Both the position numbers and the translations under genes were made by a program. Source: Minisyncoccia bacterium (GTDB lineage: Bacteria > Patescibacteriota > Minisyncoccia > Phycocordibacterales > UBA9973). From it: 64,000 bases of DNA. The number at the start of each line of letters is the position of its first letter. Position 1 is the stretch's first letter. Positions 3,303-62,574 of the stretch are shown one piece after another. Under the pieces are notes generated by a model. The model searched no databases. It was not told the origin of the DNA and saw nothing but the letters and a program-made list of their open reading frames with translations. The stretch lies in NCBI GenBank assembly GCA_044228545.1, contig JBGAUR010000001.1, forward strand, positions 450 to 64,449, written 5' to 3'.

Positions 3303-3875
3303 TTACTTTTTTACCTGTTTTTCGAAAGTAAACACTGAATAGTCATGTGGGTTTACATCGTAATTATGCAAAACTTGTAGCGCTGAACACACAACATGGT
3401 CCTCCCATTTAAAACCAAGTTTATCTGAGATTTCTTTTATTTCTTCAATTGTATCCCCCTCCAACTCTATATATGGAGGTATTAACGGCCACTCATCTAT
3501 ATCACATTCTATATTGTCTAAAATATATCTTGTTCTTATTCTCTCCTCATATACTTTTGGAACTAATCCTATTTCTTCAAGAAGCTGGGATGTTTTGTCG
3601 AAATCTGAAACTTCGACTTCGATTTCTTTCATCCCTTGATCTTTTAGAGGATTATTTCCCACTCCTAATCTTTCTTTATAGCTAAGAGTTATTCTGTTCC
3701 CTTCATCTCTAAGTCTAACCCAAGCATTTCGTTCTTTTGAAAGTTTTAAATTGGGAAAATCGTAGGGTTTAAGTCTATAATCAAATCTACCTACAAGAAC
3801 GGCTCCTAGATTTTTTAAATCTTCTTCAATTTTATCTTTATTAATATTTAGAAATTTTACTTCTATTTCTTCCAT
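3303..3875 (-). CDS. CYTH-domain protein, paralog 1
   Basis: MEEIEVKFLNINKDKIEEDL, WVRLRDEG, EIEVEVSDF, and C-terminal YIELEGDT. The stop overlaps the upstream ATPase gene by 1 nt. Confidence 0.65.
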   Translation of the reverse strand: MEEIEVKFLNINKDKIEEDLKNLGAVLVGRFDYRLKPYDFPNLKLSKERNAWVRLRDEGNRITLSYKERLGVGNNPLKDQGMKEIEVEVSDFDKTSQLLEEIGLVPKVYEERIRTRYILDNIECDIDEWPLIPPYIELEGDTIEEIKEISDKLGFKWEDHVVCSALQVLHNYDVNPHDYSVFTFEKQVKK

Positions 3876-6610
3876 TATCCTTGTTGTCTATACTTTGACA
3901 TTATTTCCTCTTCTACTTCTGCACGCTCGCGACCAAATTTTAGATATGAAAGTTCTTTGATTTTTTCTACAATTTCCATATTGCCTTGTGGAGGCGGGAA
4001 TGTTCCCATATTAAAGGGTTTTGTTGGCTGACCTGCCACTAGCATCGATACATAAGCATTTCTATTCTCTATTTTCATTATATCCGCAGAGGTAAATATA
4101 GGTTTAAACTTACTCTCTAGGAATTGTGCATCTTCCGCTCCAACACGGAAAACTGTCATTGAGCCGACGTTACCAAAAACTGCATTCTTGATATTGTCCT
4201 CAAGTTGAGCGATGTATTGGTGGGCAACAGTTAGAGAAAGTCTATACTTACGAGCCTCTGACAAGATAGACTCAATTGAATCCGTAGTAACATTTTGGAA
4301 CTCGTCTATATATAGGAAGAAATCTTGCATCTTTTTTCCATACATATCTACACGTGAAAGTGCAGCCATCTGAATTTTGTTTACTATTAGAAGCCCGATA
4401 AGGTTAGCATTTATATCACCAAGGCGACCTTTTGAAAGGTTTACCAATAGAATCTTTTTATTGTCCATTATATCTCGGAAGTTAAATACAGATTTTTCCT
4501 GAAGAACAACTGGACGCATAATATCGTTGGAAATAAAGTTGTCGAATTTTGAAGTGATATATGGTACGAAGTTCGCAAGGGATTGATCCCCTGTTGTTTG
4601 TTCTGCTCCTTTCCAGAACTGCGTAATGATAGGATTTTTACAATGAGAAAGCTTCATGTCACGGAACTCTTTGTCGGCAAGCACTCTTCCAATTTCTAAA
4701 AGTGTTGAACCAGACTCTGGATGTTCCATAACAAGAAATGCTGAATTCTTGAAATATTGTTCAAACATTGGTCCTCCTGATGTCTTCATATCAAAAAGCT
4801 TGTTGAATATATTCATCAGCTCATTGACTACAAAAGTCTTCTGTTCTGGGTATTTAGGATCATATTCGAGCATGTTTAGACCCATAGGACGAGCAGTGTA
4901 AGCAGGATCAAAATATATAACGTCATCTATGCGTTCCTTTGGAATATAACTCAAAATATCTTGAATATCTGTTCCATGAGGGTCAATATAGCAAACACCG
5001 TGGCCTGCCTTAATATCCTGAGCTATCATATTCTTCATGATTGTCGTCTTACCTGTACCTGTCTGACCTATCACATATAAGTGTCGCATACGGTCTTCGT
5101 CTGCAAAGTGAATGGCTGTATCTTTACCTCTGTAACTGTTAACTCCGAGTATAACGCCTTGTTCCCCCATTTCGATAGGCGCAGGGGCAATACCGGCTTT
5201 TGCTTGCTTGAGTTGAGGAGATGAAGTGATACCGTGTGGGAAGTGGAAGACTGTTGCAAGTTCTTTAAGATTTAGTGGCATTGAATATTCATCGGAAAAG
5301 GTACGGTAAGAAAAATCATGAGTTAATTGGTTTAGATCTTTACCTTGTGGGTGGTTCCAATTGAAACCATTGCGATCAGACTCTGTAAATTGATTGAATG
5401 ATGACTCGATATCTGAAAGAATTTGTTTAGCTCTCAGACTACTCTCAGCTGAAGCAATCACCCGAATATTACAAGCCATTATAGTGCTCTTCATTTTTTC
5501 AGTAATATTCTCTACTGCTTTATCGTTAACCTTTTTCTCTTCTTTGTTTTTTGATTGTCCAAATACAAGCTCTTTGGCAATAGAGCCTAGGCCTTTAGTA
5601 AACTGCCTTGTCATACTTGAAGCTGTGCGCACTGACATCCCCTCTTTTACATCTCCGAGTATTATGTGGAACTTTCTGATAATGTCATCATCTTCTGGGC
5701 AAATAGTAAACTGAATTGCTGCTCCTTCTCCAGATTTTTTGAGCTTAGTGAAGACATTGAGAATAATATTTAGTGGATCGTGATCTATAGCATCATAAAG
5801 CTTTATCGGATAAACTTCGTGATGAGCAAGTGTTGCATAAGAAGCTACCACTGAGCCACTGTCAGTAAATATATTATAGTCATCTGGCGCTTCATTTATC
5901 TTTGCACTAGGGTGGACACCTAAAAGTTGTTTTTCAAAAAGATCTGCTTTGTGTGTTGGCACTGCAGTGTAGAAAACAAAGTGATCAGTATCTTCAGCTA
6001 ATGCAATCTCTAGTGTAAAATGGTTACGATTATAATTCTGCCTACCTTCACCTACTGAATGCATTCCGGCATAAAATTGCTCCATAGCAGAGAGTAACTC
6101 TTTTAAACCTTTTTTTTCTTTCTCATCATTTGTTGGATCAGGTAAAGTAATCTCAAATAACTTCATATCGAGCGATTTGAAGAGTGGAGTACTTTCTTTG
6201 AGTCCAGGGATTTTATGCCTACTATATAAATATTGAACTAGGAATCTATGAAAATCATCATCAAGGTGAGGATTGTTCATCTTAGCCACTATTGAAAGCG
6301 CTGTTGAGATGCCTTTATCTAATAGAATTCCTAACATCTCTTCCATCTTATTATCGTGCGATTCAGGGTGGAGTCTAAGCACCAAGTCATTCGCATCAAC
6401 ATCTTCCATGACAGCACTTTTATGCATTACTTCTTGTGGTTCATATTTCTTATACTCTTGGATAACATCATGAGCAAGATTTTCTTTTGAATAATCTTGT
6501 CCTTGATCTATGAGAGCTTTTTCTTTTTCAGCAATATGGGCACGCAAAAATTCAAGCTCCTCTTCCGGAGTCTTGAACTTTGGAGCATTGTTTAAATTAA
6601 AACCTTCCAT
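3875..6610 (-). CDS. Type IV coupling protein-like ATPase (VirD4/TraD/TrwB family, FtsK-HerA superfamily) with a roughly 500-aa N-terminal extension and no obvious transmembrane anchor. The track start at 6679 is TTG; the ATG at 6610 is preceded by TGATATAAT.
   Basis: The Walker A block HLYVIGQTGTGKTTIMKNMIAQDIKAGHGVCYIDPHGTD aligns with TrwB HLLVNGATGTGKSVL...VIVDPNGD. The Walker B and arginine-finger block FLYIDEFQNV...ARKYRLSLTVAHQYIAQLED aligns with TrwB LWLFIDELASL...GRKAGLRVVAGLQSTSQLDD. Confidence 0.6.
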   Translation of the reverse strand: MEGFNLNNAPKFKTPEEELEFLRAHIAEKEKALIDQGQDYSKENLAHDVIQEYKKYEPQEVMHKSAVMEDVDANDLVLRLHPESHDNKMEEMLGILLDKGISTALSIVAKMNNPHLDDDFHRFLVQYLYSRHKIPGLKESTPLFKSLDMKLFEITLPDPTNDEKEKKGLKELLSAMEQFYAGMHSVGEGRQNYNRNHFTLEIALAEDTDHFVFYTAVPTHKADLFEKQLLGVHPSAKINEAPDDYNIFTDSGSVVASYATLAHHEVYPIKLYDAIDHDPLNIILNVFTKLKKSGEGAAIQFTICPEDDDIIRKFHIILGDVKEGMSVRTASSMTRQFTKGLGSIAKELVFGQSKNKEEKKVNDKAVENITEKMKSTIMACNIRVIASAESSLRAKQILSDIESSFNQFTESDRNGFNWNHPQGKDLNQLTHDFSYRTFSDEYSMPLNLKELATVFHFPHGITSSPQLKQAKAGIAPAPIEMGEQGVILGVNSYRGKDTAIHFADEDRMRHLYVIGQTGTGKTTIMKNMIAQDIKAGHGVCYIDPHGTDIQDILSYIPKERIDDVIYFDPAYTARPMGLNMLEYDPKYPEQKTFVVNELMNIFNKLFDMKTSGGPMFEQYFKNSAFLVMEHPESGSTLLEIGRVLADKEFRDMKLSHCKNPIITQFWKGAEQTTGDQSLANFVPYITSKFDNFISNDIMRPVVLQEKSVFNFRDIMDNKKILLVNLSKGRLGDINANLIGLLIVNKIQMAALSRVDMYGKKMQDFFLYIDEFQNVTTDSIESILSEARKYRLSLTVAHQYIAQLEDNIKNAVFGNVGSMTVFRVGAEDAQFLESKFKPIFTSADIMKIENRNAYVSMLVAGQPTKPFNMGTFPPPQGNMEIVEKIKELSYLKFGRERAEVEEEIMSKYRQQG

Positions 6611-6617
6611 TAAAACT

Positions 6618-6626
6618 ATTATATCA
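6618..6626 (-). promoter_or_regulatory. Extended -10 (TGATATAAT on the minus strand) ending 7 nt before the ATPase ATG; leaderless-type arrangement
   Basis: Read directly on the reverse complement of 6611-6630. Confidence 0.35.
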
Positions 6627-6656
6627 TAAAGATTTTTATAAACTGATATAAAAAAA

Positions 6657-6673
6657 GCCGGAGTGCGTCCGGC
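6657..6673 (-). terminator. Hairpin GCCGGA-GTGCG-TCCGGC, followed on the minus strand by a T-run; terminates the 163-aa gene
   Basis: Read directly. An A-run at 6650-6656 sits on the plus strand. Confidence 0.45.
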
Positions 6674-6702
6674 TGGCAAGTTGGCAATCCTATTTGGTAG
6701 GA

Positions 6703-8078: not shown

Positions 8079-9767
8079 TTATTCAAACTCTTTTTTGTAT
8101 TCTTCAACATCCCATACCTTCTCCAAAGATTCTTGCGAATAAGAACTTATTATATTATTACCTGACTTATCACTTTTACGATTGAAGAGTCTAAAGGAGC
8201 TTGCCATAGTATGGCGTTTTTTGTGTCTCTCATAGAAGGACTCTCTAGGTAATGGAATTTTATATTTGCGGTAAAAAGAAAGCTCTTGCTCTGTAATTTT
8301 ATATCTTTTATTTGATAATTTAGATAGAATAACCTCGTTCACAATATCATCACCAACATCAAGAATAGAGTCAGGGAGCTCCTCTGCTTTGATTGTATGA
8401 TCAAATATTTGATCCTCTGTTTTATCTTCATATCTAAAACCATGCAAATTTATTTCATCCTTTGTAAGCGGATATAACTCTTGAGCTTCTGTGTCTAGAT
8501 AAGGGAAATAAGATAATTCGGTAGGTAAATAATCTCCGAAAACATATTTATTCCCTTTTTTATCAATATATGGCATGTCAGACATGTGCTTTTTTATTTC
8601 TTCAACTAACTTTAAATATTCTTCTTTTGTATATTGCTTATTCAAAATACAATATTCTGCATCTTTTAAACCATTACAACCAAAACAATTTTTACTTCTA
8701 TAAATTTGACTCACATATGTCACATCCTGACAGTTCCACGCTGAATAACTACCAATAATATTAGAAGAGAAGGCTGGGAGATCTGATTCATAAGCAAGCT
8801 CTGATCCTCCACCAGCATCAGTATCATAGGAATCTCTTGCTCCATCAGCATAGTTATCGAATCTACAATTTTCACTCGAAAGCATTAAAAAAGAATCTTT
8901 ACAGTTATGACAATTAGTCAAAAGGTCACCAGAACAGTCAACGCAATTAACCATCCTGACAGCTTTTCTGGGATGAGTATTTAAAATGGGTTCAAATTCT
9001 TTCTTAGCTCTTTCAACCCCAGAGTAAGTATGCAAAGCATATTCTTTCATCAGCTCTTCATATTTTTCTTTACCAACATCTTCATTTTTAAAAAAATATG
9101 ATTTTCCTCGAAGCCCTGTGCACATAAAACAGTGGTTACAATTTCGGCAATCATAACAGAAGGCAGAATCTGAACATGATCGTGAATCATACACATATCT
9201 ACATTGATAACAATGTTCAGTGTTTACAGTTTCGTAATTGCCTTCATCTTTCCCAAAGCTCGTATGCACATCTACTAAGTCCTTACTATTTACAACATAG
9301 AAAGAATACATAACATTCTCAAGCTTCCAAGCCTTTATCACTAAATAGCAATCTTTTCCCATTGCAAAGTCATTTGTATACATACAATTAGTACTCAGTA
9401 ATCCATCATCTGTATCCATTGCTGGTTTCGGAACAGTTTTTATTAAATCAACATATTGCTCAAAAAATGAACGGGAAAAATCATAGTCCCTTCCATAATC
9501 AAAAGCGTTCCATTGATCGGAATGCCATAATTTAGGAGTATATACGGTAATATCAGACTTAGGAGAATATAAAGAGATAACGGAATTCCCTGACAAACCA
9601 CATGTCGATTTATAATAATTAACATAGTTTCTCCAACTAAACCTTCTTTGTCTTCTACATTCTGGGCAAAACGTCGGCGGAGGAACTTTTATTTTTTCAT
9701 AAAAGGAGAAATCATCAACCTCTATATTAAAGGAGTTTTTACAATTCTGACAATTCCTAGTTTCCAT
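8079..9767 (-). CDS. Cysteine-rich protein of 562 aa, unknown family (paralog A)
   Basis: ATG at 9765-9767. An N-terminal zinc ribbon C-x2-C...FY...P-P-x2-CP-x-CRRQRRFSWRN is followed by a WHSDQWN..DYGRDYDFSRSFFEQ block, CxxCxxCxxC clusters and a CILNKQYTKEEY motif. It is paralogous to 42309-43955 and 60546-62231. Confidence 0.6.
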   Translation of the reverse strand: METRNCQNCKNSFNIEVDDFSFYEKIKVPPPTFCPECRRQRRFSWRNYVNYYKSTCGLSGNSVISLYSPKSDITVYTPKLWHSDQWNAFDYGRDYDFSRSFFEQYVDLIKTVPKPAMDTDDGLLSTNCMYTNDFAMGKDCYLVIKAWKLENVMYSFYVVNSKDLVDVHTSFGKDEGNYETVNTEHCYQCRYVYDSRSCSDSAFCYDCRNCNHCFMCTGLRGKSYFFKNEDVGKEKYEELMKEYALHTYSGVERAKKEFEPILNTHPRKAVRMVNCVDCSGDLLTNCHNCKDSFLMLSSENCRFDNYADGARDSYDTDAGGGSELAYESDLPAFSSNIIGSYSAWNCQDVTYVSQIYRSKNCFGCNGLKDAEYCILNKQYTKEEYLKLVEEIKKHMSDMPYIDKKGNKYVFGDYLPTELSYFPYLDTEAQELYPLTKDEINLHGFRYEDKTEDQIFDHTIKAEELPDSILDVGDDIVNEVILSKLSNKRYKITEQELSFYRKYKIPLPRESFYERHKKRHTMASSFRLFNRKSDKSGNNIISSYSQESLEKVWDVEEYKKEFE

Positions 9768-9771
9768 AAAT

Positions 9772-10368
9772 TTAATCTATTTTGACTTTTATAATTCCAG
9801 TCAAGTTCTCACTTGATAAATAACCACACCATTTTTCTAAATCTGGAATATCTATTTTTATTGGTATTTCTGGCTTAGTAAATATTACTATATTTTTATA
9901 GCTTTTCTTTATTACTTCTTCTTTTGCTACACAATTATCTATGTGGCCAGAAAATATTATCTTATTTAAGCCCAAACAGGAATCAAAAACTTGTTTACTG
10001 AATGCTTCAATATTTTTTACAAGAACGACTCTATCTTTTATATCTTCCAAATTTTTTACAGCATTAATAAAAAGATCTTCATTGCCACTATCTAAAATTA
10101 TTACCTGGCTATCTCGATGATTCTCTAAATCTTCAGTTGAATTAACAAAGGCTAAGGTTGTATGTTTATTACCTATCTGTTCTAAAAAGTTATCTTTAGC
10201 CATAGGAAAGGCTGTAAAAAATAATATTTTTGAACCAGATAAAAATAAATCTTTGATGAGGGTAATAGTAAAATGAGAACCTCCAGATTTTTCTCCATAT
10301 ATAACTAAATAAGGTAAATCTTTTTCTTGTATTTTATATTCATTACCATTAAGTAGTACCTGGTTCAT
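9772..10368 (-). CDS. Hypothetical protein of 198 aa
   Basis: It is a long ORF tightly packed between pyrH-like and the Cys-rich gene. I recognise no family. Confidence 0.4.
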   Translation of the reverse strand: MNQVLLNGNEYKIQEKDLPYLVIYGEKSGGSHFTITLIKDLFLSGSKILFFTAFPMAKDNFLEQIGNKHTTLAFVNSTEDLENHRDSQVIILDSGNEDLFINAVKNLEDIKDRVVLVKNIEAFSKQVFDSCLGLNKIIFSGHIDNCVAKEEVIKKSYKNIVIFTKPEIPIKIDIPDLEKWCGYLSSENLTGIIKVKID

Positions 10369-38679: not shown

Positions 38680-38779
38680 GAATTCTGTATTCTGTCATAT
38701 TTGTCGTCAAAAGATATAAAATTGCTATTTAAGCTATATTTTGTATAATATAAATGTTGTCAATTATTACGACAAATCT

Positions 38780-39529
38780 ATGAAAAACCCTAAATTATTG
38801 GGAACATTAAAAGATATTGGACTTGATGAGACAGAAGCACAAATCTACCTGACTTCCCTTTCATTAGGCCCAACTACAGTACTGAAGATCGCTCGCAGTA
38901 GTTATATCAAGCGCACGACGGTATATGGAGTTATTGAATCCTTGCAGAGCAAAGGTCTAATGCGAATTGAGTTAAAGGGACTGAAGCAACTATATGTGGC
39001 TGAAAACCCAGAGAAACTAGAGGCGATACTTGATAATAGGAAAAGAGAATTTAGCGCAAAATTGCCTGACTTTATGGCTCTTTATAAGCTAGAAGGTGGT
39101 GAAAGTACTATAAAATACTACACTGGGCTCAAAGCCATGAAACGTATATATCTGAGCACTCTAGATGAGGTAAAAAGTGGTGATGAATACCTTGTGATAA
39201 CCAACCAAGAAAAGTGGTTCCTCCTTGATCCAGACTTTTGGATGAAGGAGTATATAGAGGAAAGGGCGAAATTGCCTTGCAAAACAAGGCTAATATCCCA
39301 AAATTCCAATACCGCTCTAGAACATCAGAAGTTTGAAAGAAATTACAACGAAAAATTCAAGATTTTCGGAGAAAATGTTTCAATAAATATAGATATGGTG
39401 CTTATCCCGAACAAACTCATAATTGTTGACCTACTTCCACCTCTTACAACCCTTGTAATAGAAAATAAAAATATCATTGAACTCCAAAAACAACTTTTTG
39501 AAATTATCTGGAGCTCTATACCAGAATAG
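38780..39529 (+). CDS. TrmB-family winged-helix transcriptional regulator
   Basis: GLDETEAQIYLTSLSLGPTTVLKIARSSYIKRTTVYGVIESLQSKGLM is a TrmB-type N-terminal HTH. Confidence 0.6.
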   Translation: MKNPKLLGTLKDIGLDETEAQIYLTSLSLGPTTVLKIARSSYIKRTTVYGVIESLQSKGLMRIELKGLKQLYVAENPEKLEAILDNRKREFSAKLPDFMALYKLEGGESTIKYYTGLKAMKRIYLSTLDEVKSGDEYLVITNQEKWFLLDPDFWMKEYIEERAKLPCKTRLISQNSNTALEHQKFERNYNEKFKIFGENVSINIDMVLIPNKLIIVDLLPPLTTLVIENKNIIELQKQLFEIIWSSIPE

Positions 39530-41205: not shown

Positions 41206-41955
41206 TTATTCTAAAAATGTAAGGAGAAGCATTAAACCAACTCCAACAATGACAGTAATTATTTGAAATATAGAATTATTATTTCCTTGGTGTTTGTGTA
41301 ATTCTGGAATTAGATCCGCAACTGCTATATATATAAATCCTCCAGCTGCAATTGGCAGTAGCCAGATTATTGAAGCCTCAGCTACAGAACCCAACACTAA
41401 TGCAACAATAACTCCTACTACAGATAGTAGAGCTGAAACAAAGTTCAACCACAGTGCTTTATTTTTTGAGTATCCTGAGTGTAATAAAACAGCAAAATCA
41501 CCAATCTCTTGAGGGATTTCGTGTAAAATAACTGCAATTGTAGTTGCGATACCAAGAGGTATGCTGACAAGGAAACTAGCTCCAATAATAACTCCGTCGA
41601 TTAGATTGTGAATCCCATCAGATACGAGAATCAACTTCCCTACTGGGTGTATTTCAGGATGTGCAGCATCTTCTCCGTGATGATGCCAGTGAAGGAACTT
41701 TTCTAATATAAAGAATACCAATATACCTGCTATAACTAAGGAGCTTACCAAAGCATTATCTGTTCCCTGTTCAAAGGCTTCAGGAATTATATGAATAAAA
41801 GCATCTCCAAGAAGCGCTCCAACAGCAAGACTTATAAAAATACCAATATATTTCTTCAAGGTTTCCTCTTTAAAAGAAAGAGTAAAAACTCCTACGAGTG
41901 ATATTAGGCTTATAAGTAGAACACTACCTACTGCATATAAATATGTTGTGATCAT
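41206..41955 (-). CDS. zupT: ZIP-family metal transporter (ZupT-like)
   Basis: HEIPQEIGDFAVLLHSG is the ZIP signature. It has 8 TM helices. Confidence 0.8.
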   Translation of the reverse strand: MITTYLYAVGSVLLISLISLVGVFTLSFKEETLKKYIGIFISLAVGALLGDAFIHIIPEAFEQGTDNALVSSLVIAGILVFFILEKFLHWHHHGEDAAHPEIHPVGKLILVSDGIHNLIDGVIIGASFLVSIPLGIATTIAVILHEIPQEIGDFAVLLHSGYSKNKALWLNFVSALLSVVGVIVALVLGSVAEASIIWLLPIAAGGFIYIAVADLIPELHKHQGNNNSIFQIITVIVGVGLMLLLTFLE

Positions 41956-41957
41956 TG

Positions 41958-42031
41958 TGGTGCGGGATAAGAGAATCGAACTCTTGCCAACAGTTTGGAA
42001 AACTGTAGTTCTACCACTAAACTAATCCCGC
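41958..42031 (-). tRNA. tRNA-Gly (anticodon TCC), CCA encoded
   Basis: Manual fold of the reverse complement: GCGGGAT acceptor, anticodon loop TTTCCAA, 4-nt variable loop, T-arm AAGAGTTCGATTCTCTT, and terminal ACCA. Confidence 0.8.
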
Positions 42032-42178
42032 GATTTTACTGTAAAAAAACTTGTCGGGGTGCCGGGAATTTCTACCCTTACAGGGTCAGTATACTTTTTA
42101 AAATTTACTATCGTAAATATTTAAAAAGTCTTCGAATCCCGGACGCAAGCAAAGCAGTTTGCTTGCTCATCCGACTTG

Positions 42179-42251
42179 TCGGGGTGCCGGGATTCGAACC
42201 CGGAGTCGCCTGTTCCCAAAACAGGAATGTTAGCCGTTACACCACACCCCG
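42179..42251 (-). tRNA. tRNA-Pro (anticodon TGG)
   Basis: Manual fold: CGGGGTG acceptor, D-stem GTGT/ACAT, anticodon loop TTTGGGA, T-arm CCGGGTTCGAATCCCGG. No CCA is encoded. Confidence 0.8.
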
Positions 42252-42308
42252 AACCCGAAAAACACTCATCTATATTAGCATATTTTGCATAAAACACAAT
42301 TATAAAAT

Positions 42309-43955
42309 TTAAGCAATTTCTTTTAGATAACAACTCTCACAAGCAATTTTTTCATACCCCCAACTTTTTGGATAAAATGCATTTATATTTTTATTACAAT
42401 AAAAACAATTGTAAAATTCACTTTTACTTGGACTTGTAGTAATAAGACGCTCTTTCGTACGTACATCAAAGTGAACTCTTGGAATAGCAATCTGCATTTT
42501 CTTGAGAAAAGATAGTTCCGCTTCTGATATATTATATCTCCATCCAGTTACAGGACAAACTAAGGGTTGTTTACAAATACTTACATCAATAGCTTCAATT
42601 GATTCTGGTATATCTTTAGTATTCATACCTTCGACTTTTACTCCTTCACCTTCGTCCCAATATCCACCCTTTTCTAATACATACTCTCTTGTAACTTCTG
42701 GAAAATAAATCGCTGCAGTAGAAAAATTGTAAGGGCATAAACCAAGTGAGTATGGTGGAAATTTACCATATTCCCCCTTCTCTTTCATATCAGAAATTAT
42801 TTTTGATTTCAAAACTTCGTATTCTTCTTTTGTATACTGCTTATTTAAGATACAATACTTCTTCTTACGCAAACTAATACAACCGAAACAATAATCGATT
42901 TCGAGGCACTCGTCACAATACTCAGAATATCTTGCTCCATCACACCATATAGAATAATTCAGTTGGTACCCATTAGTGCAACAGCTATTATTACCAGATA
43001 GTTCAATTTTCCAACAACCGGTCAAATCTATACAATCTTTTGCCTCACGACCTCTTAAACAATCTACACAATTTTCAGATTCCTCCCAAAAGAAAACATT
43101 AGTACAACTTTTGCAGTCACTAAGATAACTACCAAAAGAATCATATGTTTTAATACTAAAATTCTCTCTATGAACGACTTGTTTCTTTAATATTTCTTGA
43201 TATTGGGAACGTAATTTTTCAAGATTTTTATTGGAAGAAAAATCAAATTCCTTAACTTTTTCTAAATACTCTTCTTTCGTATATTGAACATTTAAAATGC
43301 AATACGACTTCCCTCTTAGATTCCAACACATAAAGCAATTACTACAATTTCTACAATCAAAAAGGAAAGAACTATTTATGCAATCTCTACTATTTCTAGA
43401 GAAAAATAATTCATAGGAGTTAAAACAGTAAACGCAATCATAGCACTTTTCAAGATCAAACACATGTGATGTATCTATCGAGTCTTTTACCTTTACTGCC
43501 CTATATCCGTAAATAAGATCTTCGCAATGTGAAACCGAGCGACTCAAATAACAATTCTTAGATTCCCATGCATCATCACACCAATCACAATTTAGATTTT
43601 GTGCTCCTTGTTGGTGTGGGCGAGGAACTTTTTCTTGAAGTTCTTTTAATTGATCAATAAATGGCCGACTTGAATCGTAATCTTGTCCATATTCCATCGG
43701 ATCCCAAGCATCACTCCACCATTCTTTTGATGTATATATTGGATATCTTGGATTCTCTGGTAAAACAGTAATGAGCTTTTCCCCAGACAAATCAGACTTC
43801 CCTGTTCTAAATTTGCCAAACGGCCAAAAAGCCATATGTTGTTTCCATCTGCAATATACACAAATATCAGGCCCAACAATATCAACTTTATTATATAAAT
43901 CCCTTTCTATTGGAGTTATCTCAAAATTTGCTTTGCAATACAGACATTCTTTCAT
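42309..43955 (-). CDS. Cysteine-rich protein of 548 aa, unknown family (paralog B)
   Basis: The same architecture as 8079-9767: CLYCKANFEITPIERDLY...CVYCRWKQ, WWSDAWDPMEYGQDYDSSRPFIDQLKEL, and two CILN(V/K)QYTKEEY motifs. Confidence 0.6.
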   Translation of the reverse strand: MKECLYCKANFEITPIERDLYNKVDIVGPDICVYCRWKQHMAFWPFGKFRTGKSDLSGEKLITVLPENPRYPIYTSKEWWSDAWDPMEYGQDYDSSRPFIDQLKELQEKVPRPHQQGAQNLNCDWCDDAWESKNCYLSRSVSHCEDLIYGYRAVKVKDSIDTSHVFDLEKCYDCVYCFNSYELFFSRNSRDCINSSFLFDCRNCSNCFMCWNLRGKSYCILNVQYTKEEYLEKVKEFDFSSNKNLEKLRSQYQEILKKQVVHRENFSIKTYDSFGSYLSDCKSCTNVFFWEESENCVDCLRGREAKDCIDLTGCWKIELSGNNSCCTNGYQLNYSIWCDGARYSEYCDECLEIDYCFGCISLRKKKYCILNKQYTKEEYEVLKSKIISDMKEKGEYGKFPPYSLGLCPYNFSTAAIYFPEVTREYVLEKGGYWDEGEGVKVEGMNTKDIPESIEAIDVSICKQPLVCPVTGWRYNISEAELSFLKKMQIAIPRVHFDVRTKERLITTSPSKSEFYNCFYCNKNINAFYPKSWGYEKIACESCYLKEIA

Positions 43956-43982
43956 TTATAAAGTATAGCTTATATACAGTAT

Positions 43983-44387
43983 TTATAAAATAATATTTTC
44001 AATGGTTCTCACCCTTGCTGTTCTGGTTTTTAAGTCAATGTAAACTAACAACAGGTCAAACTGCCAAGATGTATTCCCTATTCTTTTATGAATCAAGTAA
44101 GTTTGGATTGTCCTTGATAGTCTTTTAAGCTTCCAAGGGTGCATATTTTCTTCTGGTCTTTTGATAAATGGGTTCTCGTCTTTAAAATCTGGCAAGGTTA
44201 CACATGAAACTGACTTTACTTCAAAAAAATAGAGCTTGTCATCTTTTTGAGCAATTATATCTATTTCACCCCATTTTTTAGTGTAGTTTCTTTCTAATAT
44301 TAGAAAGTCCTGTTTCATAAGAAACTTACAAGCTATATCCTCGCCCAATTGACCAATTTTTTGAGAATCTGAGGTGAATTTTTTCAT
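43983..44387 (-). CDS. yraN: YraN-family (UPF0102) predicted endonuclease
   Basis: GQLGEDIACKFLMKQDFLILERNYTKKWGEIDIIAQKDDKLYFFEVKS matches the YraN motif. Confidence 0.6.
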   Translation of the reverse strand: MKKFTSDSQKIGQLGEDIACKFLMKQDFLILERNYTKKWGEIDIIAQKDDKLYFFEVKSVSCVTLPDFKDENPFIKRPEENMHPWKLKRLSRTIQTYLIHKRIGNTSWQFDLLLVYIDLKTRTARVRTIENIIL

Positions 44388-44657
44388 ATGTTACATGTGT
44401 AACTTGATAATGTGTTTCACGTGAAACTTTTATATATTTATAGGACATAAAAAGGAAAAGACCCCTGTCTTTCAAAAATAACCTTATTATATAAGTCTTT
44501 TTATTACTTTATAGTAAATATTTATTTTGTCAGGAATTGTCTTTTATGAACAATGCCCACATACTTATCCACAAAATCTATAATTTAAAAGGGTTTTTAG
44601 TGTGTATAAAAGACTAATAAAGAACAGTGGACTTTAAGACACTTATAAAATATTTTG

Positions 44658-44728
44658 TGCGGGATAGGAGAATCGAACTCCTGTCTCATCCTTGGCAAGG
44701 ACGTGTTCTACCACTAAACCAATCCCGC
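44658..44728 (-). tRNA. tRNA-Gly (anticodon GCC)
   Basis: Manual fold: GCGGGAT acceptor, anticodon stem CGTCC/GGATG, loop TTGCCAA, 4-nt variable loop. No CCA is encoded. Confidence 0.8.
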
Positions 44729-57792: not shown

Positions 57793-59364
57793 ATGTCATT
57801 TTCTAGAGTTTATTCTGCTCAAACACATTTACTAAAAGGTAAAATCGTCACAGTTGAGGTAGATATTACCAAAAATACTCTACACTCTTTCACATTGGTA
57901 GGTCTTCCAGATAAAGCAGTCGATGAATCAAAGGATAGGATGAGCTCGGCGCTCAAAAACTCTGGATTTACTTCTCCTAAAAATCAAAACCAGAAAATAG
58001 TTATCTCGCTTTCACCGGCAGATCTGAAAAAAGAAGGACCTTACTTTGATCTCGCTATAGCTTTGGCGTATTTATTATCAGCCGGTGAAATAGACTTTGA
58101 CCCAGAGAATAGAATTTTCTTGGGTGAATTATCTCTTAATGGTGAACTTCAACCAATTAAGGGAGCACTGCCTCTTGCAGAAGCTGCAAAGAAACTTGGG
58201 TTCAAAGAAATATTTTTACCAGAACAAAATGCAAAAGAAGCAGCGCTTGTCGAAGGACTAACTATCTATGGAGCAAAAACATTGAGAGAAGTAGTGGATC
58301 ACATTTATAAAATAAAATTGGACAAAAAAGGTAACCCAATCGAAAAAGAAAGATTGAAAATAACTCCAACTCCAAAAACAGAAATAATTTATAATAAAAA
58401 AGAACACGGGATAGATTTTTCAGATATTCGCGGACAAGAAGGGGCAAAGCGGGGGATAGAGATAGCTGCTGCAGGTGGACACAATATTGCTATGTCTGGA
58501 CCTCCAGGCACTGGTAAAACAATGCTTGCTAGAGTTTTCTCTCATATTCTTCCTGATTTAAAAACAGACGAATGTTTAGAAATCACAGGAATACATTCAG
58601 TGGTTGGGCTTTTGGACGACGCCCTTGTTACAGAACCACCTTTTAGGGCACCGCACCATACAGCAAGCTATGTATCAATGATTGGTGGTGGTGCTAATCC
58701 AAAGCCTGGTGAAGTTACACTTTCTCATAGAGGAGTATTATTCCTTGACGAATTCCCAGAATTTGAAAAACGTGTTTTGGAATCTCTTCGCCAACCACTT
58801 GAAGACAATATTGTATCTATATCTCGCGCTCGAGGATCGGCAATATTCCCATCGAATTTCATCTTAGTCGCAGCCATGAATCCATGCCCTTGTGGTAATA
58901 AGGGAAGTAAGCAAAAAGAGTGTATTTGTAAACCGAGTGATTTAGATAGATATTCAAGAAAACTTTCAGGTCCTATAATGGATCGTATAGATATCTGGGT
59001 AACCGTCGGAGCAGTAGACTATGAAAAGTTATCTAGCATAGAACCATCTGGAGAAAAGACGAGTGTAATAAAAGACCGTGTAAAGAGAGCTCGCGACATT
59101 CAAAATAAAAGATTTAAAAATTCCCCAAGAAAAATAAACACAAATAGCGAGATGAATGTTAAAGAGCTCGCGATTTATGCTCCGCTTGATCCTGAAATTA
59201 AAAAATTATTAAACGAGAGTGCTGAGAAACTCCAACTATCTGCAAGAGCATATCATCGAACTATAAAACTCGCTCGTACTATCGCAGATTTAGAAGGGAA
59301 TGAGAATATAAACCAAAATCACATTTTAGAAGCATTACAATATAGACCGAGAACAAATAATTAA
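57793..59364 (+). CDS. yifB: YifB/ComM-family Mg-chelatase-like AAA+ ATPase
   Basis: Lon-like N-domain, Walker A MSGPPGTGKTMLA, Walker B VLFLDEFPEF, arginine finger. Confidence 0.85.
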   Translation: MSFSRVYSAQTHLLKGKIVTVEVDITKNTLHSFTLVGLPDKAVDESKDRMSSALKNSGFTSPKNQNQKIVISLSPADLKKEGPYFDLAIALAYLLSAGEIDFDPENRIFLGELSLNGELQPIKGALPLAEAAKKLGFKEIFLPEQNAKEAALVEGLTIYGAKTLREVVDHIYKIKLDKKGNPIEKERLKITPTPKTEIIYNKKEHGIDFSDIRGQEGAKRGIEIAAAGGHNIAMSGPPGTGKTMLARVFSHILPDLKTDECLEITGIHSVVGLLDDALVTEPPFRAPHHTASYVSMIGGGANPKPGEVTLSHRGVLFLDEFPEFEKRVLESLRQPLEDNIVSISRARGSAIFPSNFILVAAMNPCPCGNKGSKQKECICKPSDLDRYSRKLSGPIMDRIDIWVTVGAVDYEKLSSIEPSGEKTSVIKDRVKRARDIQNKRFKNSPRKINTNSEMNVKELAIYAPLDPEIKKLLNESAEKLQLSARAYHRTIKLARTIADLEGNENINQNHILEALQYRPRTNN

Positions 59365-60137
59365 TTGTTGGTATCCAATCTTTTTGCTTCAGCCCAAGCA
59401 AGTTCGTAAATTTTTTTCATTGCATCTGCAATCTCACTACTCTCTATTATTATTCCGAGTTTCTCTCTCCATGAAGCAATCATGACTTTGTTGTCATAAA
59501 TATTTATCTCTGGAGAAAAATAAAATTTATCTGCAGGCACTAGTGCGCTTTCTCGCATCTCATCTTTATCTAATGATTTTCTTTCTCTACCGATATCAGT
59601 GTTAGGAATTATCGCTCGTATATGAATACCGTTTCCTGCACGACGTTTGTAGTATTTCGGGAAATAATTTGGAAGACCTTTGTGCATATCATCAACTGTT
59701 GCATAAGCACGGATTGGTTCGTGAGAGGTGAGAGTATCTTCATACACTTCCATGAGGCCTTCCGTACCTTCATAGAAACGAACTCGGGCACGATCTGTCA
59801 TATTGTGGATTGATTTTAATTCCGGAATTAGTTCTTCTGTTTTTTTTAACGCTTCATGTTTATGACGAATATCTTCTGTTATAAATCTTGAAAGATTCTC
59901 TGGTGATTCGGCACTGTACTCTTGTTTAGGTTCTTTGCCTGAGATAATAACAAGACCTTTTGCAGATAGGGAATCGAGAATATCATAACCGGTTGTACGA
60001 TTTATATTTGCACGTCGAGAAATAGCTGAAACCGTCCCTTTACCAAGCTCAAGGAGGGAGATATACACACCTGCTTCTTTATCTGTAAGACCAATTGCTA
60101 CAAGCTTTGTTTTAAGCTCAACTTGCTCTTTTTTCAT
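59361..60137 (-). CDS. TrmB-family transcriptional regulator (second copy)
   Basis: GLTDKEAGVYISLLELGKGTVSAISRRANINRTTGYDILDSLSAKGLV. Confidence 0.6.
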   Translation of the reverse strand: MKKEQVELKTKLVAIGLTDKEAGVYISLLELGKGTVSAISRRANINRTTGYDILDSLSAKGLVIISGKEPKQEYSAESPENLSRFITEDIRHKHEALKKTEELIPELKSIHNMTDRARVRFYEGTEGLMEVYEDTLTSHEPIRAYATVDDMHKGLPNYFPKYYKRRAGNGIHIRAIIPNTDIGRERKSLDKDEMRESALVPADKFYFSPEINIYDNKVMIASWREKLGIIIESSEIADAMKKIYELAWAEAKRLDTNN

Positions 60138-60312: not shown

Positions 60313-60510
60313 ATGGAAAAAGAAACAATTCCAAAAAAAATTACACGGGTTTGTAAAAAATGTAATAATACTTATATGATAGATTACGAAAATGTACTAT
60401 TCTATAAATCTATCAATAGTGAACTTTTTGAGTATTGCCAAGAATGTAGATTAGTTCCAAAAATTAGAAATACAGAGAAGAAAGACTGGTGCCACAATGA
60501 CCTAAAATAA
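60313..60510 (+). CDS. Small zinc-ribbon protein of 65 aa, a stand-alone copy of the N-terminal module of the Cys-rich family. The track start at 60271 is TTG.
   Basis: CKKCNNTYMIDYENVLFYKSIN...YCQECR parallels CKTCEKEFGIRDEDLVFYEQMKSPTPQYCPDCR of the downstream gene. Confidence 0.4.
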   Translation: MEKETIPKKITRVCKKCNNTYMIDYENVLFYKSINSELFEYCQECRLVPKIRNTEKKDWCHNDLK

Positions 60511-60545: not shown

Positions 60546-62231
60546 ATGACTAAACAAAATTGTAAAACATGTGAAAAAGAATTTGGTATAAGAGATGAAG
60601 ATCTTGTGTTTTATGAGCAGATGAAAAGTCCAACACCACAATACTGCCCTGACTGTCGTATGATGCGACGTCTTGCTTTTCGAAACGAACGAACATTATA
60701 CAAAAGAAAGTGCGATCTTTGTGGAGAGAACGGAGTATCACTTTATACCGAAGGGACTCCATTCCCAGTGTATTGTCATAAATGTTGGTGGAGTGATAAA
60801 TGGGACCCAAGAGATTTAGCAATGAATTACGATCCGTCTCGTCCATTCTTAGAACAGTTTAAAGAATTGCAAAGTAAAATACCGCGCATTGCACTTCTTG
60901 TGATTGACTCAGTTCGATCGGACTACACAAACAACGCAGGTGAGAATAAAGACTGTTACCTAATATTTGCAGCTGAAAATAATGAAGATTGTTCATACGG
61001 TCGTCTAGTTCAGAGGTGTAAAGGTTGTGTTGACTGTGCATTTATATATGATTCCGAACTTTGTTATGAGTGTATAGATTGTAGAGGGTGTTTCAAATGT
61101 ATGTATTCTGAGCAGTGTCAATCCTCTAGCGATCTATTGTTCTGCTACAACATGCGTGATTCCCAAAATTGTATCTTATGTACTAATGGTAGGCACATGT
61201 CTAATGCAATTTTAAACGTTAAGTATAGTAAAGAAGAATTTGAAAAGAAGAAAACTGAAATACTTTCGAGTTATGAAAATATTGAGGAAGCAAAGAGACA
61301 GTACAATGAACTAAAAAACAATAATATAGTAAAAAATGCATGGCAAACAAAGTGCCACAACACAACGGGAGACTATATGTACAACTGCTATGATGGAGTA
61401 AGACTTTTTGACGTATCAGATGCAAAAAATTGTTCCTATATGGCAGATGCTATGGATATAAAAGACTCTATGGATTGCAATAATTTTTATATAAAGTGTG
61501 AATTTGAATACGATATGATGGGAGTACTTGGTGGAGCAAAGAATAAGCATGGTTTCTATGTTATGTGGTGTAATAATACAGAATATTGTGACTCATGTTA
61601 TCACTCAAATGACTTGTTCGGTTGCATAAGATTAAATAAAGAGAGCTATTCAATACTGAATAAAAGATATGATAAGGAAGAATATCTACAGTTACGAGAA
61701 AAAATAATTGAAAGTATGAAAGTCGATGGAACATACGGTCAATTCTTTCCACCATCACTATCACCATTCGGATATAATGAAACCTTGGCGAAAGAATACT
61801 TCCCAATGAATCGAGATGAGGCAATTAAAAAAGGCTTCAAATGGCAGGAACAAAATTCAGGAACATTTGGTAAGGAAACCGTTATAGAAGAAAATATTCC
61901 AAAAACAACAGAAGATATCCAAGATACTATAACAGGAGATATTCTCGCATGTAATGAATGTGGAAAAAACTACAAGCTTACTCAAACAGAGGTGGAATTT
62001 TATCGTAGAATGCATCTACCAGTACCACATAAAGATTTTGAGTGTCGCCACCAAAACAGAATGAAAAAAAGAAATCCGCGAGCACTTTGGCCACGCTCAT
62101 GCATGTGCACAAACGAAAAACATATGAATCACCAGAGTGGAACATGTAAGGAAAACTTTGAGACAAGCTACTCACCAGATCGAAAAGAAATAGTTTATTG
62201 TGAAAGTTGTTATCAACAAGAAGTTGCTTAG
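60546..62231 (+). CDS. Cysteine-rich protein of 561 aa, unknown family (paralog C)
   Basis: N-terminal ribbon, WWSDKWDPRDLAMNYDPSRPFLEQFKEL, CxxCxxCxxC clusters, two ILN(V/K)(K/R)Y(S/D)KEE(F/Y) motifs, and a C-terminal ribbon CNECGKNYKLTQTEVEFYRRMHLPVPHKDFECRHQNRMKKRN. Confidence 0.6.
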   Translation: MTKQNCKTCEKEFGIRDEDLVFYEQMKSPTPQYCPDCRMMRRLAFRNERTLYKRKCDLCGENGVSLYTEGTPFPVYCHKCWWSDKWDPRDLAMNYDPSRPFLEQFKELQSKIPRIALLVIDSVRSDYTNNAGENKDCYLIFAAENNEDCSYGRLVQRCKGCVDCAFIYDSELCYECIDCRGCFKCMYSEQCQSSSDLLFCYNMRDSQNCILCTNGRHMSNAILNVKYSKEEFEKKKTEILSSYENIEEAKRQYNELKNNNIVKNAWQTKCHNTTGDYMYNCYDGVRLFDVSDAKNCSYMADAMDIKDSMDCNNFYIKCEFEYDMMGVLGGAKNKHGFYVMWCNNTEYCDSCYHSNDLFGCIRLNKESYSILNKRYDKEEYLQLREKIIESMKVDGTYGQFFPPSLSPFGYNETLAKEYFPMNRDEAIKKGFKWQEQNSGTFGKETVIEENIPKTTEDIQDTITGDILACNECGKNYKLTQTEVEFYRRMHLPVPHKDFECRHQNRMKKRNPRALWPRSCMCTNEKHMNHQSGTCKENFETSYSPDRKEIVYCESCYQQEVA

Positions 62232-62235
62232 CATA

Positions 62236-62268
62236 AAAAATCCCTCGATTTTAATCGGGGATTTTTTA
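62236..62268. terminator. Hairpin AAAAATCCCTCG-ATTTTAAT-CGGGGATTTTTT between convergent genes
   Basis: Read directly. Confidence 0.4.
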
Positions 62269-62574
62269 TGCTTTCTTAACTACCTTTTTCTTAGTTGTTG
62301 TTTTCTTTTTTGCTTTAGCTATTGGTTTTGGTGAGAAAGGAGCAGTTTCAATGGTAAATGGTTTTGGAGCAGCGATTAATCTTTCTTTTTTCTTCTTTTT
62401 TACAGTTTTCTTTTTAGCTACGACTTTCTTTTTTGTAGCTGTTTTACTTGTAGCTACCTTGGTGGGTGATACTGTGGTTTTTGAAGTAGTTGTAGTTGCT
62501 GCAGACACATCCGCCATAGGATAGCCTATGAATAGAGTAAGAACTATAAGTAATGGGATCAATCTTTTATTCAT
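62266..62574 (-). CDS. Secreted Lys/Thr-rich low-complexity protein of 102 aa
   Basis: A signal peptide is followed by TTTTSKTTVSPTKVATSKTATKKKVVAKKK repeats. Confidence 0.4.
   Translation of the reverse strand: MNKRLIPLLIVLTLFIGYPMADVSAATTTTSKTTVSPTKVATSKTATKKKVVAKKKTVKKKKKERLIAAPKPFTIETAPFSPKPIAKAKKKTTTKKKVVKKA

Follow-up and report, generated by a model that had tools for sequence, protein, structure and literature searches.

Small zinc-finger domains and narrow β-solenoids are the nearest described counterparts of the proteins considered here. The Pfam families zf_Tbcl (PF13451) and zf_Tbcl_2 (PF23477), labelled 'probable treble clef', are short domains without an assigned function, and LIM domains are tandem treble-clef fingers serving protein-protein contacts. 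The left-handed β-helix enzymes (LpxA/LpxD, GlmU, γ-carbonic anhydrase) have hexapeptide-repeat solenoids of the form [LIV]-G-x4, and the antifreeze protein of the beetle Tenebrio molitor is a secreted, disulfide-braced protein of 84 residues. DotN is a small, single-copy, zinc-binding partner in the Dot/Icm system of Legionella. For Patescibacteria a 2025 survey found 5,713 VirD4 homologues, only 148 of them near virB4, and their co-option for other functions has been raised as a possibility (PMC12102498). We describe a protein family from this phylum that is represented by three genes (paralogues A, B and C) in a stretch of 64,000 nucleotides from a Minisyncoccia bacterium (contig JBGAUR010000001.1, positions 450 to 64,449; the window). 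It is a new, large, lineage-specific group of zinc-finger proteins with a predicted solenoid core.

Three paralogues of a large Patescibacteria family

Paralogues A, B and C align end to end in BLASTP with full-length pairwise identities of 30-31% (E = 2e-73, 7e-90 and 2e-87). The E-values are composition-adjusted, so cysteine content does not account for the similarity, and the three open reading frames (ORFs) are clear paralogues, as an earlier note on this DNA had claimed; their coordinates (Table 1) match that note exactly. All motifs quoted there occur in the sequences: CxxC...FY...PxPxxCPxCR at the N-terminus, the block WWSDxWDP...SRPF...Q and the cysteine clusters. The WWSD block is conserved but not 'almost invariant', A having LWHSDQWNAF, and the two ILN...KEE motifs ascribed to every copy are present in B and C, whereas in A only ILNKQYTKEEY is clean and the first motif reads FFKNEDVGKEKY. 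A six-frame scan of the window with hidden Markov models (HMMs) finds no further full-length family copy and one truncated family element, which is discussed below.

Scans of A, B and C against Pfam, NCBIfam and PADLOC (threshold for PADLOC E ≤ 0.01) give no match, and sequence profile searches of the PDB with alignments of 3 and 142 sequences give nothing below E 0.02. As none of the three matches a PADLOC model, membership of a known anti-phage defence system is not indicated. Comparison with PHROGs yields only weak matches to phrog_15341 (E 4.5e-6 to 7e-4), a group with no function assigned, and a single partial match among 2.9 million viral contigs does not point to a phage-encoded family. 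Neither the family nor the zf_Tbcl finger families turned out to be described in the literature searched. The family as a whole is undescribed in Pfam, NCBIfam, the PDB and the literature, and the view that its core belongs to no named family is upheld.

Searched exhaustively with an HMM, 1.84 billion cluster representatives (50% identity) yield 4,639 matches at E ≤ 1e-3 and 2,058 at E ≤ 1e-30, of which the best 150 are all 517-601 residues long and matched end to end. Nearly all named matches, and every genome locus, are from Patescibacteria, which also bears out the Patescibacteria origin proposed for the window. Most lineages are of the Paceibacteria type (Nomura-, Jorgensen-, Lipton-, Sungii-, Staskawicz- and Brennerbacteria), and the few contigs with other taxon labels are short or probably mis-binned. 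The family is all but confined to Patescibacteria. A metagenome contig (ENA ERZ27258543, k141_1177508) carries paralogue C.

Copy number and gene order were read from 80 related, family-centred genome loci of ~13 kb (individual loci carry L numbers below). These hold 221 family ORFs, with at least two in 61 loci, at least four in 21 and a maximum of eight, and array copies are nearly all on the same strand and tightly spaced. With thousands of members and tandem arrays as the usual arrangement, the family is understated by the description 'dispersed three-member family'; three copies in 64 kb, which had seemed unusual, is a low number for the family. Identity between adjacent array copies is only 28-55% (median 40%), so the arrays are old. 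Recent amplification or a mobile element was considered and rejected, because identity between adjacent copies does not exceed 55% and the viral contigs are essentially free of the family. Array position is kept in some subfamilies: five loci have one type as the final copy, ahead of the downstream ATPase, and three have the B type as the opening copy, behind the upstream ATPase.

Orthologues occur in many metagenome-assembled genomes, with identities of 56-84% for A, 55-99% for B and 59-88% for C. Between the window genome and its relative CBFHKH01, C is 84.7% identical, as against 82.3% for PNPase, 82.5% for ComM, 62% for TrmB and 37% for the M23 peptidase. Judged by these identities, the family is under housekeeping-grade purifying selection. 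Conservation like that of PNPase argues against fast-evolving effectors or antigens and suggests a core cellular role rather than an arms race. One array can hold up to eight copies of 1.7 kb each in the tiny genomes of Patescibacteria; such costly copies, kept as conserved as core enzymes, make it very likely that the family is central to these organisms.

Zinc-finger modules and a predicted solenoid core

Profile-profile comparison of segments cut from a 153-sequence family alignment identifies the two halves of the core (S1 and S2) as homologous (probability 99.8% and E 4.3e-29 over 77 columns for the N- and C-terminal modules, Z and Z'; probability 99.9% and E 2.2e-36 over 129 columns for S1 and S2), and the terminal modules likewise. 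Cross-comparisons, which served as control, are not significant. This gives the domain order Z-S-S'-Z', mirrored and not a tandem (Z-S)x2. The internally duplicated core proposed in the earlier note is thus confirmed by the S1/S2 match, and, the order being mirrored, 'pseudo-dimeric' is only loosely right. A degenerate C-terminal repeat of the N-terminal ribbon, attributed to each copy, is present as a homologous module in all three, although that of A is without any cysteine.

Each Z module consists of two small fingers, the first with the pattern C-x2-C-x3-F-x-I-x3-D-x2-FY-x5-P-x-P-x2-CP-x-CR-x2-RR-x3-RN and the second with C-x2-C-...-P-x-x-VYC-x-x-C. Among 153 diverse members the best-kept ligands are C6/C9/C34/C37 (90-98%) and C519/C534/C552/C555 (95-98%), and no more than about half of the members retain the inner fingers. 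Finger 1 is followed by conserved Arg and Asn residues (R38, R41, R42, R46 and N47), with R501 (100%) and R505 (97%) in the C-terminal module. Pfam zf_Tbcl matches 15 of 52 members (best E 1.1e-7) and zf_Tbcl_2 matches 8 of the 52 (best E 2.2e-5); A, B and C match neither at E ≤ 1. The conserved CxxC ligand pairs and these matches argue that the termini are zinc-finger modules, as had been proposed.

The paralogues differ in the fingers they keep. C has three with all four cysteines (finger 1, C6, C9, C34, C37; finger 2, C56, C59, C77, C80; finger 2', C519/521, C534, C552, C555) and a fourth, third in order, with three (finger 1', C469, C472, C500). B keeps two, finger 1 (C4, C7, C32, C35) and finger 2' (C517, C520, C539, C542), having lost finger 2. 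A keeps one: its finger 1 is intact (C6, C9, C34, C37), finger 2 is degenerate with C56 alone left, and an LWHSDQW...SRSFFEQ helix follows; in its Z' module every zinc ligand is gone and the ELSFY...PLP...R motif is retained, with no cysteine beyond residue 373. To judge from copies such as A, zinc sites appear to be dispensable in some members.

Cysteines in the core follow a strict period of 3 over both halves (autocorrelation 0.4-0.7 at lag 3, further peaks at 9 and 12) and are laid out in hexads of the form x-[DNE]-C-x-x-[CS]. Across the family alignment most of these positions exchange with Ser, Leu or Val, and only C203/206/209/212, C360 and C369 (numbering of C) are highly conserved (> ~75%). 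Many non-cysteine residues are 95-100% invariant. Each S half ends in a strand and a helix, C-I-L-N-K-Q-Y-x-K-E-E-Y, whose Asn is conserved at 98% (N224) and 100% (N372). Iron-sulphur or classical zinc clusters were considered for all core cysteines and rejected, since substitution by Ser, Leu and Val is common. The CxxCxxCxxC clusters emphasized in the earlier note are present, but the period of three, the exchanges and the predicted solenoid indicate that they are probably not classical metal clusters.

An AlphaFold model from a shallow alignment leaves the core unfolded, with a mean predicted local distance difference test (pLDDT) of 73; with 142 sequences from all three subfamilies the model of A has a mean pLDDT of 83.8 and a predicted template-modelling score (pTM) of 0.85. 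In the latter model the termini and S2 are confident and S2 forms short strands every ~6 residues; S1, near pLDDT 60, should have the fold of S2 because the two are homologous. The core is probably a narrow β-solenoid with a six-residue repeat, in which the inward positions are mostly a ladder of Cys and Ser. The only fold neighbours of the model in Foldseek are β-solenoids, the nearest being γ-carbonic anhydrases, LpxD and GlmU, all of them weak [E ≥ 0.019, template-modelling (TM) score ≤ 0.23]. No hydrophobic segment (19-residue Kyte-Doolittle mean > 1.6) occurs in 184 members, so that the family proteins are regarded as soluble; the window proteins have no signal peptide. A membrane or secreted protein was rejected because of the lack of hydrophobic segments. 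That the proteins are twin solenoids capped by zinc fingers we regard as quite likely.

The modules of A, B and C (Table 1) rest on matches to family HMMs of the N-module, S1, S2 and C-module (domain E-values).

Table 1. Family genes, their modules and two further ORFs, in window coordinates (aa, amino acids).
Feature	Coordinates	Strand	Details
Paralogue A	8079..9767	-	562 aa, 24 Cys; ORF list
A, N-terminal Z module, aa 3-114	9426..9761	-	N-module HMM E 2.3e-49; pLDDT 88-98
A, S1 and capping helix, aa 125-267	8967..9395	-	S1 HMM E 1.3e-49; pLDDT ~60; contains CYDCRNCNHCFMC
A, S2 and ILNKQYTKEEY helix, aa 268-398	8574..8966	-	S2 HMM E 2.9e-43; pLDDT 73-98
A, C-terminal Z' module, aa 473-561	8085..8351	-	C-module HMM E 2.4e-25
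Paralogue B	42309..43955	-	548 aa, 38 Cys; ORF list
B, N-terminal Z module, aa 1-112	43620..43955	-	N-module HMM E 3.7e-38
B, S1 and ILNVQYTKEEY helix, aa 118-260	43176..43604	-	S1 HMM E 6.7e-52
B, S2 and ILNKQYTKEEY helix, aa 265-395	42771..43163	-	S2 HMM E 2.6e-40
B, C-terminal Z' module, aa 459-547	42315..42581	-	C-module HMM E 4.9e-23
Paralogue C	60546..62231	+	561 aa, 39 Cys; ORF list
C, N-terminal Z module, aa 3-115	60552..60890	+	N-module HMM E 2.9e-51
C, S1 and ILNVKYSKEEF helix, aa 117-261	60894..61328	+	S1 HMM E 7.4e-50
C, S2 and ILNKRYDKEEY helix, aa 263-395	61332..61730	+	S2 HMM E 6.7e-42
C, C-terminal Z' module, aa 460-560	61923..62225	+	C-module HMM E 1.5e-36
65-aa ORF, finger-1 module only (CKKC...FY...CQECR...RN)	60313..60510	+	N-module HMM E 2.1e-6; directly upstream of C
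934-aa VirD4/TraD-like P-loop ATPase	3875..6679	-	third subtype; end of secY-adk-pyrH-map block

Neighbouring VirD4-like ATPases and the proposed role

Among non-family neighbours a VirD4/TraD/TrwB-like P-loop ATPase is the most frequent: its 31 ORFs are spread over 24 of the 80 loci, and in 22 it adjoins the family. An 'a' type of ~490 residues lies upstream of arrays and a 'b' type of 498-999 residues downstream. The b type carries a finger, CSxCGKxxxVPFEPxxGRPVYCKDC, directly after the ATPase domain in 14 of 14 complete copies; a b-type neighbour matches zf_Tbcl_2 at E 2.7e-12, and b-type ATPases are the only non-family ORFs, of 770, to match the family finger HMMs. The neighbouring ATPases are recognised by type IV coupling-protein profiles (52.8 bits for the b-type protein of L050), and their scores with the NCBIfam TraD and VirD4 models are far below the cut-offs.

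Long b-type proteins (L050 8588-11587; also L007, L009, L010 and L025) extend past the zf_Tbcl_2 finger, to a total of up to 999 residues; that of L050 runs on into a low-complexity region rich in Pro and then a long Glu/Lys-rich, coiled-coil-like segment. Five loci (L006, L009, L010, L056 and L076) have an NRAMP transporter and CutA flanking or interrupting the ATPase-bounded arrays, and a secreted protein with lamin-tail and PKD domains after the downstream ATPase. Upstream of arrays a module recurs (L056 3067-5902; L075, L071, L031) that comprises a protein with sigma-70 region 4 and HARE-HTH, a membrane-anchored protein of ~440 residues and the a-type ATPase.

The reading we favour, while giving it slightly less than an even chance, is that the family proteins are zinc-stabilised intracellular binding scaffolds which cooperate with finger-bearing ATPases where arrays adjoin them. 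Zinc bound by the fingers, and perhaps by a few rungs made up of Cys alone, would structurally brace a rigid, compact two-solenoid body, and this body would be a binding scaffold inside the cell. Each old paralogue would offer its own surface to its own ligand, which would explain why there are many old paralogues, each under strong purifying selection. In genomes with tandem arrays the family would work with the adjacent VirD4-like ATPases that have a zf_Tbcl_2-type finger after the ATPase domain, as partner, as adaptor or by way of a common ligand. A lost its C-terminal ligands and yet retained the invariant E, P and R, which speaks for a scaffold rather than a metal store. The link to the ATPases, suggestive as it is, we consider less likely than not when taken by itself.

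Several observations speak against this proposal. 'Scaffold' is a generic reading of solenoids, the coil length may be 12 or 18 residues, and no annotated homologue bearing on function was found in Pfam, NCBIfam, PADLOC or the PDB. ATPase adjacency is limited to the 22 family-centred loci mentioned, and the loci are phylogenetically related. Many family genes (F) stand in other conserved contexts of a housekeeping kind, namely the cell-division/cell-wall cluster ScpA-ScpB-VanY-F-MraY-FtsW-MurG-GltX (10 loci), the secY-adk-pyrH-F-map block, positions beside DnaK or DnaJ genes, and ABC transporter-F-F followed by an ORF of ~730-780 residues (ribonucleotide reductase by eye reading only). Gene neighbourhood is in any case weak evidence in dense small genomes. 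Finally, metagenome loci centred on the 934-residue ATPase subtype hold the family in just one of 80, and in none of the 48 that are at least 8 kb long.

This third subtype is the one encoded in the window (Table 1). It scores 25.9, 26.8 and 24.1 bits with T4SS-DNA_transf, TrwB_AAD_bind and TraG-D_C (cut-offs 20.1, 20.5 and 22), and has no transmembrane segment and no zinc finger. A functional link between paralogue A and the window ATPase was rejected on the strength of the one locus in 80 and of the missing shared finger. In 17 of the 80 loci map adjoins this ATPase, mostly with adk, pyrH and secY, and the family gene is absent there; hence A appears to have been inserted into a conserved secY-adk-pyrH-map-ATPase block, an arrangement common to the window, L024 and L048. 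The closeness of A to the 934-residue ATPase is not evidence of a functional link, and the two are probably unrelated. What survives, as the data suggest, is the link of arrays with a- and b-type ATPases only. That a coupling-protein homologue should be tied to a ribosomal-protein gene cluster, as the 934-residue ATPase is, is unusual. By eye, the ~440-residue protein of the upstream module has motifs in common with the N-terminal half of the 934-residue protein, which may be a fused version of the split gene.

The conserved Arg and Asn residues behind finger 1 raise the question of nucleic-acid binding, suggested in the earlier note. An Arg-rich helix after each first finger (CR-x2-RR-x3-RN) would lie on the backbone of DNA or RNA and the mirrored ends would grip two sites, in translation, chromosome handling or DNA uptake. 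The conservation of these residues in both terminal modules agrees with this, as do the layout of treble-clef finger and helix predicted by AlphaFold and the secY-adk-map, ScpA/ScpB and tRNA/CCA-enzyme/UPF0102 neighbourhoods; VirD4-type ATPases, moreover, can translocate DNA. However, A, B and C are acidic overall (K+R 71-76 versus D+E 81-89; family median net charge -5), the conserved Arg may merely pack against the acidic solenoid, and the Pfam, NCBIfam and PDB searches gave no match to known nucleic-acid-binding families. We hold this function to be unlikely, although it is the strongest of the alternatives.

A bolder version of the ATPase link, which we judge improbable, would see in the family the partner that the 'orphan' VirD4-like ATPases of this phylum lack: a zinc-rung β-solenoid assembly of old paralogues, possibly a hetero-oligomer encoded by an ordered array, would dock by its zf_Tbcl_2-type fingers onto a finger-bearing VirD4-like hexamer and be driven by the ATPase independently of VirB4, with some CxxCxxCxxC rungs holding metal inside the solenoid. 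If true, this would be a new ATPase-driven system independent of the VirB4 type IV secretion machinery, and metal ions on all-Cys rungs within a solenoid would be a cofactor arrangement new to science.

The adjacency of arrays and VirD4-like genes could also mean that the family proteins are cargo, recognised by the neighbouring coupling ATPase and exported by a type IV-like route to serve as effectors in a host or neighbour cell. The finger type common to family and b-type ATPase is compatible with such a role, and diverged multi-copy arrays recall effector or pilin arrays, VirB2 arrays being known in Patescibacteria (PMC12102498). Against it stand the PNPase-like conservation of orthologues, adjacent copies without recent duplication, the many copies distant from any VirD4-like gene, and the location of most Patescibacteria VirD4 homologues away from virB4 (PMC12102498). 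The predicted C-terminus is, moreover, a folded zinc finger ending in YCExCY and not a disordered tail, and zinc-braced solenoids would presumably be hard to unfold for export. Export as cargo thus appears quite improbable.

Members carry 23-44 cysteines (median 34), and abundant proteins of this kind might behave as large metallothioneins, storing or buffering zinc or iron or scavenging oxidants. Two tRNA genes separate B from a ZIP zinc transporter on its own strand, and NRAMP and CutA genes flank some arrays, but metal-related neighbours are few and the latter two occur in only a handful of related loci. Most core cysteines are replaceable, A is still conserved after losing two and a half of its four fingers, and the many invariant non-cysteine residues are unlike metallothioneins, so that we give a metal or thiol buffer very little credence. 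Least probable is an enzyme with active sites on the solenoid face or between subunits, as in left-handed β-helix acyltransferases and γ-carbonic anhydrases, for although the six-residue period, the identity of the top Foldseek matches and the housekeeping-like conservation are in its favour, those matches are weak, the Pfam hexapeptide-repeat model is unmatched, the invariant residues look structural (Pro, Gly, Asn caps, aromatics) with no catalytic constellation recognised, and many paralogues per genome would be unusual for such enzymes.

Other elements of the window and comparison with known systems

The truncated family element is the 65-residue ORF upstream of C (Table 1), which is called as a gene in the source assembly and is similar to A, to C and to an extra copy in a relative (BLASTP E ~2e-7 to 5e-7). 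A close relative has a full family gene of 576 residues at the same place (L082 8295-10025), so the ORF probably represents what is left of a fourth paralogue since lost; otherwise it would be a free-standing finger mini-protein. Divergent from C, across a 408-bp spacer, lies one of two TrmB-type regulators [59361-60137(-); the other at 38741-39529(+)]; the arrangement is kept in L082 and this regulator could control C. An ORF of 102 residues [62266-62574(-)] separates C from an M23/LysM peptidase; its N-terminal part holds a hydrophobic segment and its body is of low complexity, rich in Thr and Lys, and a relative has an ORF of similar size at this place.

Paralogue B is part of a series on one strand with short gaps [41206-44728(-)]: tRNA-Gly(gcc), a UPF0102/YraN-like gene, B, tRNA-Pro, tRNA-Gly(tcc) and the ZIP zinc transporter. 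This may be one transcription unit of tRNAs, a zinc importer and a zinc-finger protein. Between pyrH and A, 4 bp upstream of A, an ORF of 198 residues [9772-10368(-)] matches nothing in Pfam, NCBIfam or PADLOC; it has a loose P-loop-like stretch, YGEKSGGSHFT, and a 32%-identical homologue near a family gene in L038.

Among described systems, zf_Tbcl and zf_Tbcl_2 share the CxxC...CxxC layouts of fingers 1 and 2 of the Z modules; unlike the family they stand as short domains, spanning <15% of a family protein, and do not address the core. LIM domains resemble the Z modules in that two consecutive small zinc fingers form one module, and the C-terminal second finger aligns weakly with the second finger of CRP LIM domains in the PDB profile search (E 0.023-0.15, 40 residues); the finger spacing and ligand sets are different, the match is below significance, and neither A, B and C nor 52 homologues match a Pfam LIM model.

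The core can be likened to the hexapeptide-repeat solenoid of the left-handed β-helix enzymes, but its hexad x-[DNE]-C-x-x-[CS] is not their [LIV]-[GAED]-x2-[STAV]-x hexapeptide. The hexapeptide-repeat Pfam model matches neither A, B and C (E ≤ 1) nor 52 homologues (E ≤ 0.01), the fold similarity to solved left-handed β-helices is not significant, and no catalytic residues were identified in the family. DotN, as a soluble zinc-binding protein beside a VirD4-family ATPase in the Legionella DotL complex, offers a possible analogy of arrangement; the window ATPase domain itself matches DotL/IcmO weakly (phmmer, E 0.008). The recurrent adjacency to finger-bearing VirD4-like ATPases bears on a question raised in 2025, that of the thousands of VirD4 homologues away from type IV secretion genes.

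The core also resembles the narrow, Cys-braced β-helix of the Tenebrio antifreeze protein (PDB 1ezg), which has 12 residues per turn, with scores that are not significant. The window proteins lack its TCT ice-binding face and do not show the set of features of insect antifreeze proteins (a 12-residue TCTxSxxCxxAx repeat, secretion and disulfide bonding); they have ~560 residues with a cysteine every 3. The cysteine-ladder solenoid predicted here would lie in a reducing cytoplasm, and its nearest analogues are disulfide-braced, secreted antifreeze proteins.

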